Source of the DNA: Eledone cirrhosa | Lineage: Eukaryota | Assembly: GCA_964016885.1 (NCBI GenBank) | Contig: OZ024741.1 | Location: 84,444,001 to 84,508,000, forward strand | DNA: 64,000 nucleotides | Direction of reading: 5' to 3' | Shown here: in pieces, positions 4,052 to 22,982 of the stretch | Layout: the number at the start of each line of letters is the position of its first letter | Numbering within the stretch: position 1 is the first letter of the stretch | The notes under the pieces: generated by a model | What the model saw: the letters and a program-made list of their open reading frames with translations, nothing else | Databases searched by the model: none | Told to the model about the DNA's origin: nothing | Program-made: the position numbers and the translations under genes

Positions 4052-4287
4052 GAACTTTTTTTGTTTAATATAAGGAATTGTTTATTCATTATTTGTTTAA
4101 TATTTTATCTTGACTCTGTATACCGTTTATCTTTCACCGAAAGTGATTTTTCATTACATTTCTTCTTTCCATGATATCCGGAATACATTGAGTTCTTCAT
4201 ACGGATTGGACACTACCGTAAACTCTTGGTAGATTTATCTACATATATATATATATATATAGAAGTGGTTACACAACAGTTAGTTCA

Positions 4288-4337
4288 CCATACCGAGAAC
4301 AATTGTTTCACCTTAGCGGATTCTCAACTCGGAATGG
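4288..4337 (-). ncRNA. Minimal type I hammerhead, U3-A8 core variant
   Basis: Minus strand CCATTCCGAG-TTGAGAA-TCCGCTAAGGT-GAAAC-AATT-GTT-CTCGGTATGG. Confidence 0.8.
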
Positions 4338-4521
4338 GCATGGTTATAGGAACAGGAAGGACAACCGTACGAACACGCATGCGCAGAAACCCGGTCACTT
4401 CACACAGGCAATACTAGACTACGTGCGGGAGGTGTAACGGAGGTAACCGCGAAAGTCCGGAAAGTTTTTAGGTTGAAAATAAATTTTAAAAAATTAAAAA
4501 TAAAAATAAAATTACTAAGAA

Positions 4522-5250
4522 TCAGTCCGGAGCCTTGTAGTTGTGCAACAGGTGTTTGGCGACGTGTGGACAACGTGTGAAAAATTCATTTCTCGTGTTT
4601 AGGCAATCACTATTGCGTAATCTCTTTAGAACAGTTATTCGTTCGTCAATACATAAACCACACGTCGGATTTCCCATTGTGTATGGCTTGGAACTAGTGA
4701 TGGTTTTCCATTGAATGGAGTAGTCTATACTTGAGTCCTTGAGGGACCATACGTAGCTCACGAGTTTCGTGGATGAACGTCTGTCCGGGTACCTGAAGGT
4801 AGACTGGTGGTTCAGGAAACGTTCCTTAAATCGGCCCTCCGCCATGCCCACATAGGATTTGACCTCCTGTGGTTCGTTTGGTCGGTTGGGAGTGACCACA
4901 GCTTCATAAATTACAGCTGGTGTGTTGCATTGCTGTTGAAGGGGACAAGCTTCAGTCTTATGGCAAGAGCACCCCGGTGGGGTGTTGCTCCTAGGGCTGC
5001 TGGTGATGTGGGCCTTCATGTTCTTAGCGCAGGAGTATCCTAGTTTAACTTTGTGTCGGTTAAAGATGGATCGGTATTTATGACCTATGGGGAAGTGTCT
5101 ATCTAAGCGGGCTAGAAATGTTTTTCCTACATTGGTTTTAACGTTAAGTGAGAAGGGAGGAGAGAACCAGATAGTTTGTCTATTGTTGTGCTTACTTTTC
5201 TTAATGGTGCTGTTGCTAGTGGGAGAGCTAGGTGGTGAAGGTTGCTTCAG
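4522..5250 (-). pseudogene. PLE GIY-YIG endonuclease C-terminal coding remnant (open; the poly-Ser N-terminus is a (TTC)n artefact)
   Basis: Motifs as above; no RT catalytic domain retained. Confidence 0.85.
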
Positions 5251-5300
5251 ACAGGCCCGTTGGAAGGAGTATTTGAAGACACTTCCCCCACAACCCTCCC

Positions 5301-5382
5301 AAGAAGAAGAAGAAGAAGAAGAAGAAGAAGAAGAAGAAGAAGAAGAAGAAGAAGAAGAAGAAGAAGAAGAAGAAGAAGACGA
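5301..5382. repeat. (GAA)n microsatellite
   Basis: Direct reading. Confidence 0.97.
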
Positions 5383-5419
5383 CACACATCAGTCGCTAAG
5401 TAGCTAAAGACTAAAGGCG

Positions 5420-18748: not shown

Positions 18749-19093
18749 ATTGAAAAAAGTTAAAAATGAAAACGGGCCATGAAACATTCGACCAGGCTTA
18801 CTGTATGGAAAGCAAAGACAAAATTGCAAACATTTAATAAAAATCGAACTATAATAAACATACTAAAATGTCCCTGGGAGTTTCAATAATAATACTGAAA
18901 CGAAGCCTTCGGATATGACCAATGTAACTTAGATCGTCTTCCTACTCACTCAATATATATATGTGTATATGTAGGTGTGTATGTGTGGATATATATATAT
19001 ATATATATATATATATATATATATATATATATATATACGTGGGAAAGTAAAAAATCGGAGAATAGACTGTTAAAATATGTTTATTTAAAACAC

Positions 19094-19134
19094 CACCTAC
19101 GTACGTTTCGCCCAATTGGGCTTCTCAAGGGCAT
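19094..19134 (-). ncRNA. Minimal hammerhead, U3-A8 variant
   Basis: ATGCCC-TTGAGAA-GCCCAATTGGGC-GAAAC-GTAC-GTA-GGTG; short stem I. Confidence 0.7.
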
Positions 19135-19738
19135 AAATAATGAAAAGTGTTCCTTATATTGCTCGGACAGAGTTTTTGGGGTTAAATCCACATCAAGGTT
19201 CATTGCTCGCAAAAATAGCTTGTGTTGATTTTGCAGCAGGTCAAGGGAGGTAACTCCGGCCGGTGTTAGGGCAGTCTTTCCCGGAAAACTTTTTTTTTTT
19301 TTTGCCGCATCTGTTTGTCTGAGGCTGGGTCTGGTATGCAAGGGTTGTTTCCTGGGTGTTATTTTGCAGCGCCTGCCCGCCAGGGTATTAGGACTTGTTG
19401 CAGGGAGATCCGGTGTACGGTTTCACTCCTCATCCTTAATCCATCTGAAGAAGCATATTTTTAAGCGATGTTTACAACTTATCGCTGTTTCAGCTCTGCT
19501 GTTGATGAGCTCGTGGGGTGCAGTTATGATGTGGTAGAGCTCCATGAGGCAAAGATCGCATTTCCTCTTGAAAAAAAAAAAAAATTGTCCGGGAAAGATT
19601 GCCCTAACACCGGCCGGAGTTACCTCCCTTGACCTGCTGCAAAATCAACACAAGCTATTTTTGCGAGCAATGAACCTTGATGTGGATTTAACCCCAAAAA
19701 CTCTTTTCGAGCAATATAAGGAACACTTTTCATTATTT

Positions 19739-19780
19739 ATGCCCTTGAGAAGCCCAACTGGGCGAAACGTACGTAGGTGT
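19739..19780 (+). ncRNA. Minimal hammerhead, U3-A8 variant (inverted copy)
   Basis: ATGCCC-TTGAGAA-GCCCAACTGGGC-GAAAC-GTAC-GTA-GGTGT. Confidence 0.7.
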
Positions 19781-22489
19781 TGTTTTAAATAAACATGTTT
19801 TAACGGTCTATTCTCAGATTTTTTACTTTCCCACGTGCTTACGCTCTGCTAACTCTCTAGCCCACTAAATATTAACACTTCGAATATTTAATACTGCCGG
19901 CACTAGTATCGAGCACCTTTGGCATACGCTACTTGGCAAATAACTATATGTATCACCTATCCTCCCCTTTTTTCTCTTTCTCGATACGTAAATACTGTAT
20001 ATATATATATATATATATATATATATATATATATATATATATATATATATATATATATATATATATATATATATATATATATGTGTGTATATATATATAT
20101 ATAAATATGTATATATATATATTTACATGTAAATATATTTGCAAATATATGTATAATATTTATGGTTTATCAGAGATTAACTGAGAGATAAGCTTCTCAA
20201 TTTATGTTCAAAGAAAAAATAAAAATTGATTATATGGTCACATATTACAGCTAGGCATCCACATACAGACACACACACACCCACACATACACACACCCAG
20301 ATATATATATATATGTGTGTGTTTGTGTGTGTGTGTGTGTGCGTGCGTGTGTGTGCCTGTGTGTGTGTATAATATGTTTATAAGCTAGTAAGTGTGATAA
20401 TGGACTCCTAATATAACACCTTATCTTTACGACTAAATGCTCTAAATTGATATAAAGTACTTATTTAAATTTAAAGCCAGCAGGCTAGTCGAAATGCAAT
20501 AGTCACCTTGTTCAAATACAACCCATACAGAAAAACATAACCGGAGTATTTACATCGACAAAAATATTCACTCTCACACACCAATCATTTTTAGATGGAT
20601 CTTGAGTATCTCATCATTCAATAGAACTGTAAACCTGTATAACAAATTAATGGAGTGTAATGGATTACGAGAACCACCTCTATCTTATCAAAACCAATAA
20701 ATGCTTGAGTGCAATTACGCTGGCTCAATCATCTGTGGTACCTGAACATGAGATCCAATTCTGGGGAGACGTCTTTAAATCTGCTTCGGAAATATTTCCA
20801 TGAACGACATATAAATCGTAAAGTATATAAGCAGTAAAAAAAGTTTTATGATAATTATGATTACTATCATCGCGTGTAATAGATACCACAAACTACGGGA
20901 TTTTTCCATGAACATAGATACAAATTCCGTGCATATTTGTAGCGAATGGGTTGAGTGAGACTGAAAAAGTAAAGAGTTATGCTCTGTGAAACAATGAGCA
21001 ACCAAACTACAACTAACAGGAATGTGTGAGTGCAGGTTCAAGAGTCGGTTTTTAAACCATAGATCAAGCTATAGATAGATATACTGAAAATGAATCAACA
21101 AAGCATTATTAAACCTCATATAGCATATAAAAGGCATTAACATCTTAATATCATCTTGTCTATAAAGCACATTAGCAGCATGTTAATAATCTTTTGAAAC
21201 TTGTGTGGGATTTGTATCGATAAACATTCATTGATCTCACCAGAACAACACACAATTTCAAGACATCTGTAATAAAGTGATAGCATAAAACCCATCATTC
21301 CTTCAAATGACAACCGAATTATCGTTCAACGAGGATATAACTGGAAACATGGGCACAAAAAGGAAATAATAGTAACACGTTGATGAATACCAGCAGGTAG
21401 TGCCTCTTTTCTACCAGGTATCCCATCTGAGGTATGTCCAAAGATAGGGAGAAGAATCTGAGTAACGGAATGGAGTAAACTAGAACTATAAAACTGTATA
21501 TTAAATACATTGAATATTTTCCACCACGTGGTATTCAATAAGTATCCACTCCTTAGTCTCCAAGACTCATATTCAGAAACTTGTGTTGTACCCGTTAAGT
21601 CTAAGTTAATGCAACTCTTATATATATATGTATGTGTGTGTGTGTGTGTGTGTGCGTGTGCGTGTGTGTGCGCGCGCGCGCGCGTATGAATGTGTATCGA
21701 AAAAGAGAAATAAAGAGTGGTTTGTTTATTTGTTTGTCTTTAAGATTACAAATTATTCTTAAGACTTCTAAAACAGAAATGATTATGCAGATTTCCTTTA
21801 GAAATATGCTCAGAAAAACATTTTAAATTGACTACATTTGCAGACAAATAACATTTCTTGCATTTACTTTTCATTTAATATGAGTTGTAAGTATTTCTCT
21901 CGGTGGTGTTGACAGCAGCATGACATCAAACGGAATCTAACTGGAATTTCGTACAGCGATATCCATTATCTGTCTAAATATATCCGTCATGACGAAGAGG
22001 ATGATAATGTCGGCGGAAACTAGATAAATGAGGGGTTAAGACAAACTAGGCCGACAATTCCTAACAAATTATTACTGCCAACTATATTACACAACCTATA
22101 AAATCTGGAATTTAAAATAGTGTTGCTGTTGCTATGTCACAAACTCGCGTATTTTTAATCGACCGACTATAATGTTATATCTCCTAGATAGTCACTCTGC
22201 TATCTTAATTATAGTGAGCCCAGTCCTTTCAGGAGAAATATAAGGTTAACTTTAGAATGAAAATATTGATTTCTAGCAACACAAGTTCAATGCCACCTAT
22301 GGTAGAATATAGCCTATTAGTCGACCAATTACATAAATAATACTTTATTTTATCGAACTAGCTACGTTGAAAGTTAATATGTTAACATATATAAGCATAC
22401 AGGTACATACATATACATATATATACACATACATACATACATAAACCTACATATACATACATGCATACAAACACACAGACACACACACT

Positions 22490-22982
22490 CTCCCATCCCG
22501 TCTGGCTTTCGGCTGACTGCCACGGACGGGATGGGTAGCAGTAAACTATCGTACAGTCCTGAATGGGTCATTGTTTGGCTGAGGGGGGAACTGACTAAGC
22601 GAATTGCGTTGAAATCTGCGGTAGCTAATGCTCAACTTCCTCCGGACCTGCGCCTGCGCAGACCGGTGGCGGTGAATTGGTACTCACAGGGGAACGGATG
22701 AAGAACCCAAAAGCACACACTTCGTCCGTTCCCATGTCGATTCAATTTGGATTGCCTCGGAAACATAACCTTATTATGTAACAAGCTGCCTGACGATGTC
22801 GCGAAGCTGGCACACAGAACAGTGTGGATACTGTCGCCATTGAAATATATATCGCAGCATTATTATTAAAAAACTTGAACATCTGAGACTACTTCGCTTT
22901 TCCTTATTCGATATTTACTCCGTCACACCTATGTGGAATAAGTACGATGAGTGCTTGAATTGAATTGCATCAATGTCTAGGT
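22490..22982 (+). mobile_element. GC-richer, hairpin-rich non-coding HHR element between (CA)n and (TA)n
   Basis: Hairpins 22492-22535 and 22690-22733; HHR at 22785; ATTAAA after the HHR. Confidence 0.65.
22785..22858 (+). ncRNA. Type I hammerhead with extended stem II
   Basis: GCTGC-CTGACGA-[TGTCGCGAAG..CACAC-AGAACA-GTGTG..CTGTCGCCATT]-GAAA-T-ATAT-ATC-GCAGC. Confidence 0.82.

Follow-up and report, generated by a model that had tools for sequence, protein, structure and literature searches.

A bulged hairpin repeated in the leader of Hydra-type Penelope-like elements lies at a fixed distance from both insertion ends

The stretch analysed here, called the window below, comprises 64,000 nucleotides (nt) of the genome of Eledone cirrhosa (assembly GCA_964016885.1, contig OZ024741.1, positions 84,444,001 to 84,508,000 of the forward strand). 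It holds copies of six repeat families, named A to F, in which a short motif precedes a microsatellite; three further families, G to I, come from outside it. We found that this motif is part of a bulged hairpin of elements that we place in the Hydra clade of Penelope-like elements (PLEs). The hairpin occurs twice at the start of the 5′ untranslated region (UTR), 6–9 nt past each of the two insertion ends, and is likely an RNA binding site that positions internal starts of reverse transcription, a reading to which we give a probability of roughly 0.66.

A motif enriched before microsatellites

A sequence-only reading of the window had proposed that a 3′-terminal motif, YGAGTRCTY, is shared by several families of hammerhead ribozymes. 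All eight nine-mers that it listed were recovered at their coordinates and strands, and its estimate of five or six families stands, with two sites each in A and C and one each in B, D, E, and F. Five of the eight match the consensus exactly and the other three deviate from it. The distances from the end of the motif to the microsatellite are 45, 41, 47, 44, 44, 28, 79, and 26 nt: seven sites fit the proposed spacing of 25–50 nt and the one at 79 nt does not. Taken over 25–80 nt, this spacing is family-specific.

The number of motifs in the window is within chance, since the exact motif occurs five times against a mean of 2.04 in shuffled sequence, and 7 of 100 shuffles had at least five. The expected enrichment before the 3′ junction, in contrast, extends beyond the window. 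We tested it in 118 segments, each 10 kilobases (kb) long, from arbitrary round coordinates (1.18 Mb in total). There, 49 of the 91 strict matches are followed on their own strand, at a distance of 20–90 nt, by a (TA)n or (CT)n run, compared with 8.1% of positions in general. For 150 letter-permuted motifs the same test averaged 2.5 and never exceeded 30; for the motif in reverse orientation it gave 15 of 91. The 49 matches are non-independent and, because family C makes up about half of them, they are evidence of repeats and not of 49 events. Clustering of the sampled copies gave well over ten families with the motif-microsatellite pattern.

Two parts of the proposal had to be abandoned. The motif is not 3′-terminal, because many copies stop upstream of it. 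Nor is it common to all hammerhead families: clusters of 23, 10, 6, and 4 hammerhead copies have no match to GARYRCY.

The motif is the 3′ arm of a covarying hairpin

The motif is one arm of a bulged hairpin and not a linear nine-mer. A complementary four-base arm lies upstream at all eight window sites; next to it begins an upper stem, whose other strand immediately precedes a bulge of 1–2 nt. The general pattern is RYTC, a stem-loop, a 2-nt bulge and GARY, then NCY. We compared 31 hand-selected hairpins that represent about 20 families. Sixteen have A-T as their first pair and 14 have G-C, crossed combinations do not occur, and pairs 2–4 are retained in 92 of 93 cells. Their upper stems are family-specific, their loops span 2–82 nt, the bulge is TT, TC, or TA in 29, and RCT usually follows the stem. 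Six G-T pairs occur within these stems on the sense strand. A MAFFT alignment of 20 rows, which keeps three visibly misaligned ones, has 95.8% of its cells paired and 24 cells changed on both sides; its covariation score (0.532) was reached by none of 500 shuffles, and slid controls gave at most 0.286.

The same structure emerges from unselected anchors. At least three upper pairs behind a 2-nt bulge were found in 28.4% of 155 loose anchors near microsatellites, compared with 6.7% of 928 far from them, and the other bulge sizes gave 5.8–12.9% near and 4.8–7.4% far. A covariance model produced 65 matches at E ≤ 1 in 1.05 Mb, of which 53 lie 10–95 nt before a microsatellite; these counts include the training sequences and miss long-loop copies. 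The model has no match in loci L056, L017, and L028, a further sign that some hammerhead families lack the hairpin. An Rfam scan of the window returned 58 matches up to E = 1, all below the gathering score and nearly all on microsatellites; none matched the motif sites, and one weak viral-UTR match overlaps positions 11732–11888. We also considered the motif as coding sequence or splice site and rejected both: the ATG lies downstream of the second hairpin and changes in the first pair are compensated.

Of the two functions proposed from the sequence, a promoter element in the pseudo-long terminal repeat is disfavoured, because a site in double-stranded DNA would not be expected to show G-U pairs or matched changes in its two arms. 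More broadly, the motif could be a promoter or a translation-control element of the leader, with end positions that have another cause. Its location between hammerhead and start codon would suit such a role, and passages of PMC2377424 describe an internal promoter in Penelope. However, a promoter in DNA has no need of matched changes on either side of a loop whose length varies, nor would it hold the two insertion ends at 6–9 nt. We regard this explanation as very unlikely; translational control could nonetheless be a second role of the hairpin. The other proposed function, a cis signal for the PLE reverse transcriptase (RT), is favoured by the evidence, but its unit is the covarying hairpin, present twice, and not the nine-mer.

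The elements resemble Hydra-clade PLEs

Judged from their sequences, the elements that carry the motif appear to be Hydra-clade PLEs. Five window families (A, B, C, D, and F) lead into open reading frames (ORFs) of this clade, while for family E, a unit of 1.4 kb, no ORF was found in the 600 nt translated. Families G, H, and I have intact ORFs of 709–712 amino acids, each a single frame with the RT followed by a C-terminal GIY-YIG endonuclease; family A is represented by pieces of the ORF, and B, C, D, and F by its N-terminal part. The RT N-terminal translations contain RWK or RWR and DKT motifs; family D has DKT, and family B was read as far as RWK only. The endonuclease has the CxCx5C linker, CxxC, and CxH around a conserved E and N, and lacks CCHH (alignment A2 and window family A). 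By eye, the elements resemble Hydra-1_Obim, a likeness that would fit a cephalopod host. Three proteins had no Pfam match at E ≤ 0.01, so the domain calls rest on motifs, and intact RT-endonucleases such as those of L226 and L233 would escape domain-based annotation.

Every one of the six window families has insertion ends that adjoin a (TA)n or (CT)n run. The spacing of tandem units, about 3.5 kb in family C and 6–7 kb in family F, implies units above the size usual for Hydra elements, which are "generally" under 3 kb in the sections of PMC8557442 that treat them. A 2.8-kb triplet on contig C3 was considered as a full element and rejected as a local duplication. Family F seems to have been active very recently: all 40 scored genomic copies of window positions 3990–4240 are 100% identical over 251 base pairs (bp).

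The sequence-only reading had placed a hammerhead upstream of the motif. A canonical core was found in families A, B, E, and F only (the last with a very long stem II); C and D have a variant core, and both window copies of C begin within the ribozyme. Outside the window, H and I are canonical and G is variant, all classed from sequence, with cleavage only predicted. The variant cores read CUUGAGA in C and D (window 19744; L257) and CAGAAGA in G (L227). Stem II of family F exceeds 100 nt, and family G keeps its variant core despite many intact ORFs; canonical hammerheads are said to be universal in Hydra elements.

Two hairpins, two insertion ends, and a fixed offset

Each family has two end positions, one 35–57 nt after the hammerhead cut (short) and one 100–200 nt after it (long, tailed). 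In partial tandems, found in families A, E, G, H, and I, the long form continues into the leader of the next unit, where a second hairpin precedes the start codon. Such read-through copies thus have two hairpins between hammerhead and start codon, the second about 15–80 nt before the ATG, and loops in them reach about 100 nt. Short copies stop 6–9 nt before hairpin 1 and long copies 6–9 nt before hairpin 2. We examined 22 hairpin sites, 21 of which had measurable ends: the modal microsatellite junction lies 6–9 nt before the 5′ arm at 19 of them, and the two exceptions are an offset of 11 nt and a tie of 1 and 6 nt. With the second hairpin found past the long end, the spacing of 25–50 nt noted at first is explained: it measures how far hairpin 1 stands from the end that hairpin 2 sets.

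The offset rule was fixed before families G and I were seen, and was then tested on B, C, D, and F. The search patterns combined the long end, a free gap, and the 5′ arm. A second 5′ arm was found 6 nt past the long end in 51 of 56 matches of family B and in 93 among the first 100 of 519 matches listed for family C. It lies 9 nt past the long end in 24 of 29 matches of family D, and 7–9 nt past it in 98 among the first 100 of 329 matches listed for family F. Reversed control patterns had no matches. The partner arm with its bulge, which lies outside the search patterns, is present at 12 of 12 loci in C (two of which are the same place), at 9 of 10 read-through loci in B (two B loci being tail repeats), and at all six loci in both D and F. 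Hydra-type ORFs lie behind the second hairpin in all four families. When contigs from three sequencing runs were compared with family C, two runs had loose (TA)n ends at the long junction and one had them at the short junction; we do not count this result as independent, since one run (X4) may come from the same organism as the window.

These results bear on whether the hairpins reflect shared descent or chance and have no present function. The families share an ancestor, and the window count taken alone is within chance. Yet the hairpin arms are nearly invariant and the stems change in pairs, in elements whose ORFs are only 42–64% identical over the part compared, and the four advance predictions (B, C, D, and F) held. 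The tests of position, unselected stems, offset, and covariation together largely refute this explanation, which we consider extremely improbable.

A further possibility is that the hairpins are single-stranded or extruded DNA sites of the GIY-YIG endonuclease, which would trim a transposition intermediate at a fixed distance. Covariation suits single-stranded DNA equally well. Passages of PMC8557442 ascribe the tail to endonuclease-mediated resolution and, as cited in PMC11167929, the endonuclease of Drosophila Penelope needed the tail for cleavage. On the other hand, the six G-T pairs lie on the sense strand (A-C oppositions were uncounted), whereas first-strand complementary DNA is antisense, and loops from 2 to about 100 nt suit folded RNA better than a cruciform. 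We find DNA trimming quite unlikely.

Some loci have unusual arrangements of these parts. Many linkers start with TA, as seen without counting, and could pair with the cut target. In L279 and L280, the tail of family B is repeated head-to-tail at 104 bp, with the long end joined to the sequence just before hairpin 1, which may record a template jump between two start sites. L259, L260, and L263 contain a 257-bp tandem of the family C leader with the 3′ half of the ribozyme, both hairpins, and the first codons. Positions 483–3599 of L092 hold a 615-bp tandem array with both hairpins in each unit and a doubtful hammerhead, possibly a non-autonomous Hydra derivative.

Fold-back insertions combine a long and a short end

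We classed the ends of tail-out inverted pairs in a set of random and protein-picked loci that lack a long microsatellite between the partners. Among the 40 resolved pairs, 37 combine a long and a short end, three have two short ends, and none has two long ends. All four fold-backs of the window (one in F, two in C, one in D) show the long-short combination.

The two end classes and their fixed offsets would also be expected if the hairpins directed RNA cleavage or 3′-end formation 6–9 nt upstream, by a protein of the element or a host nuclease, with ordinary target-primed reverse transcription afterwards. Two 3′ ends on one RNA are, however, hard to square with 37 long-short pairs in 40, and in the only PLE examined in vitro, copying begins at internal sites of RNA that has not been processed, according to the parts of PMC11167929 that describe it. 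We therefore judge RNA cleavage unlikely.

Hairpin-positioned internal starts as the favoured reading

We favour the reading in which the hairpins position internal starts. The transcript of a partial tandem would have the order ORF, 3′ UTR, hammerhead, hairpin 1, hairpin 2, and next ORF. The RT-endonuclease would bind one hairpin, cut (TA)n DNA, and prime 6–9 nt upstream of the bound hairpin. Priming before hairpin 1 would give the short end; priming before hairpin 2 would lead to the copying of hairpin 1 and give the tailed end. A single event would often use both starts, one on each side of the break, and so produce lopsided fold-backs. Internal starts positioned in this way would explain the PLE tail. 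More tentatively, and at somewhat less than even odds in our estimate, a dimeric Hydra RT-endonuclease may bind both hairpins of one leader, measure 6–9 nt from each as telomerase does from the stems it binds, and prime both ends of a (TA)n break.

Several observations weigh against the favoured reading. Genomic ends alone fit internal priming and RNA cleavage at the same place alike. The 31 hairpins and the 20 alignment rows were selected by hand, and covariation counts are not independent events because the families are related. The patterns of the advance predictions required a 5′ arm, so read-through copies without an arm were uncounted, and 18 further fold-back pairs have an unclassed end. 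Minimum-energy folds of five read-through leaders contain both hairpins as drawn in none, and in families G and H the 5′ arm of hairpin 1 pairs with the 3′ arm of hairpin 2. As the stems are weak, a protein or the order of folding would be needed for the hairpins to form. The second hairpins are imperfect: that of family A has a mismatched first pair and a 1-nt bulge, that of metagenome contig L246 a G-G mismatch, and several have only 1–2 upper pairs. The hammerhead clusters without the motif include tandem hammerhead repeats of 311 and 468 bp. Among elements of other animals, Hydra-1_Crog has only variants of the hairpin and Hydra-1_Obim a doubtful match, both read by eye, and in metagenome locus L253 a hammerhead-like stretch runs into a Hydra-type start without a clear hairpin.

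The hairpin in other animals and metagenomes

We read by eye six published Hydra consensus sequences (PMC8557442, File S7) and found a clear hairpin in three, from coral and sea cucumber. It lies in the tails of Hydra-2_Amil and Hydra-2_Ajap and occurs twice at the 5′ start of Hydra-1_Ajap; the incomplete consensus of Hydra-1_Amil had none. Metagenome contigs L246 and L247 have the order hammerhead, two hairpins, start codon. Of 11 metagenome loci, two (of one family) have both hairpins, one (L253) continues into the next unit without a clear match, five end short without read-through, and three lack a 3′ end. Five pattern matches in viral contigs were not confirmed. In a Hydra-like metagenome family (L248, L249, L254, L255, and L256), the end is fixed but has no (TA)n behind it.

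Relation to known systems

Small stems that set where an RT starts are known from the 3′ stem-loops of long interspersed element LINE-2 and its short interspersed element (SINE) partners, the 3′ UTR of R2, the epsilon signal of hepadnaviruses, and the template-positioning stems of telomerase RNA. These stems are small and often bulged, as is the Hydra hairpin, and they are bound by the RT, as we propose for it. They are single, and either lie at or near the 3′ end or have the template in the bulge, whereas the Hydra hairpin occurs as a pair, sits downstream of the start, and is missing from short copies; we claim no match between them.

The closest parallel in mechanism is the Poseidon element PAc of Anolis. 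According to passages of PMC11167929, its reverse transcription starts internally at two sites bounding the tail and depends on RNA located 3′ of the start; both DNA strands are extended, and a dimer is predicted. The same passages place the starts in an AC-rich stem-loop inside the ORF and define no conserved binding motif, whereas the signal described here is a repeated, covarying 5′ UTR hairpin with a measurable offset. The Hydra clade, as sections of PMC8557442 characterise it, shares with our elements the single RT-endonuclease ORF, RWK, DKT, CxCx5C, CxxC, CxH, and a predicted hammerhead near the 3′ end. Both also target (TA)n, form partial tandems, and leave truncated, inverted copies in which only one side has a tail. 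Our elements differ in their tails of about 65–170 nt, compared with 30–40 nt, and in the variant hammerhead cores of C, D, and G. Animal non-LTR (long terminal repeat) retrozymes, in the part of bioRxiv 10.64898/2026.07.22.740005 available to us, likewise have type I hammerheads and a relation to PLE pseudo-LTRs; they differ in that five of the six window families lead into an ORF.

Our literature searches, judged by listings and the starts of abstracts and made outside subscription journals and Repbase notes, found no description of this hairpin. The word "hairpin" is absent from PMC4209133 and PMC3846280 and from the main text of PMC8557442, which also lacks "stem-loop"; PMC6431247 uses it for Helitrons only. 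We conclude that the hairpin is genuine and conserved, a cis-element belonging to a clade already known, and that within the range of our search it is new to the literature.

PLEs are the closest retroelement relatives of telomerase, and how they choose template and start site is an open question; their optional tail and inverted ends have long been described without a defined RNA signal. If true, two-ended priming by a ruler would account for the one-sided tail of Penelope-like insertions and also for their head-to-head inverted structure. A motif of 25 nt with a fixed offset of 6–9 nt makes the mechanism directly testable, in a genome with many intact, near-identical ORFs. The offset is also a simple rule for the true boundaries of Hydra elements, and the hairpin might be used as a compact signal for RNA-templated insertion targeted to microsatellites.

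Features of the window

Table 1. Hairpins, hammerheads, and insertions identified in the window (window coordinates).
Feature	Position	Strand	Details
Family F fold-back insertion	3704..4242	both arms	short end 3704 (minus arm), long end 4242 (plus arm)
Family F hammerhead core	3911		within the F fold-back; very long stem II
Family F hairpin 1	4113..4193	+	5-bp upper stem, 61-nt loop, 2-nt bulge; motif site 4189 is the 3′ arm
Family A 5′-truncated copy	4262..5260	-	RT thumb and GIY-YIG endonuclease (CxCx5C, CxxC, CxH); short end at 4262, without hairpin
Family A short-ended stub	9819..9906	-	hammerhead 9885-9855; stops before hairpin 1
Family A type I hammerhead	10766..10796	+	core to cleavage site
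Family A hairpin 1	10839..10857	+	1-nt bulge; holds motif site 10853
Family B hairpin 1	11404..11443	-	6-bp upper stem with G-U pair, 18-nt loop, 2-nt bulge; motif site 11400-11408
Family B type I hammerhead	11504..11548	-	
Family C fold-back insertion	11670..11827	both arms	long end 11670, short end 11827; hairpin 1 at 11718-11741 (minus)
Family C fold-back insertion	15249..15448	both arms	long end 15249, short end 15448; hairpin 1 at 15297-15320 (minus)
Family A hairpin 1, mutated	17586..17605	-	one basal pair broken; hammerhead 17675-17645
Family D fold-back insertion	19038..19997	both arms	short end 19038, long end 19997; variant hammerhead core 19744
Family D hairpin 1	19843..19914	+	compensatory G-C first pair; motif site 19910, first called weak, is a perfect member
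Family E type I hammerhead	22790..22853	+	
Family E hairpin 1	22917..22952	+	3-bp upper stem, 20-nt loop, 2-nt bulge; motif site 22948

Besides the features in Table 1, positions 3343–3378 (minus strand) have a weak match to the covariance model (E = 0.95) that lacks a junction downstream; it may be a decayed copy or have arisen by chance. Two clusters of a degenerate, purine-rich 71-bp repeat lie at 27–448 and 2560–3007. Positions 25487–64000 consist of about 38 kb of Thr-rich, coding-like tandem repeats (a 27-bp unit present 906 times, then units of 15–36 bp) with open frames of more than 1,200 amino acids, and resemble a giant mucin-type exon.

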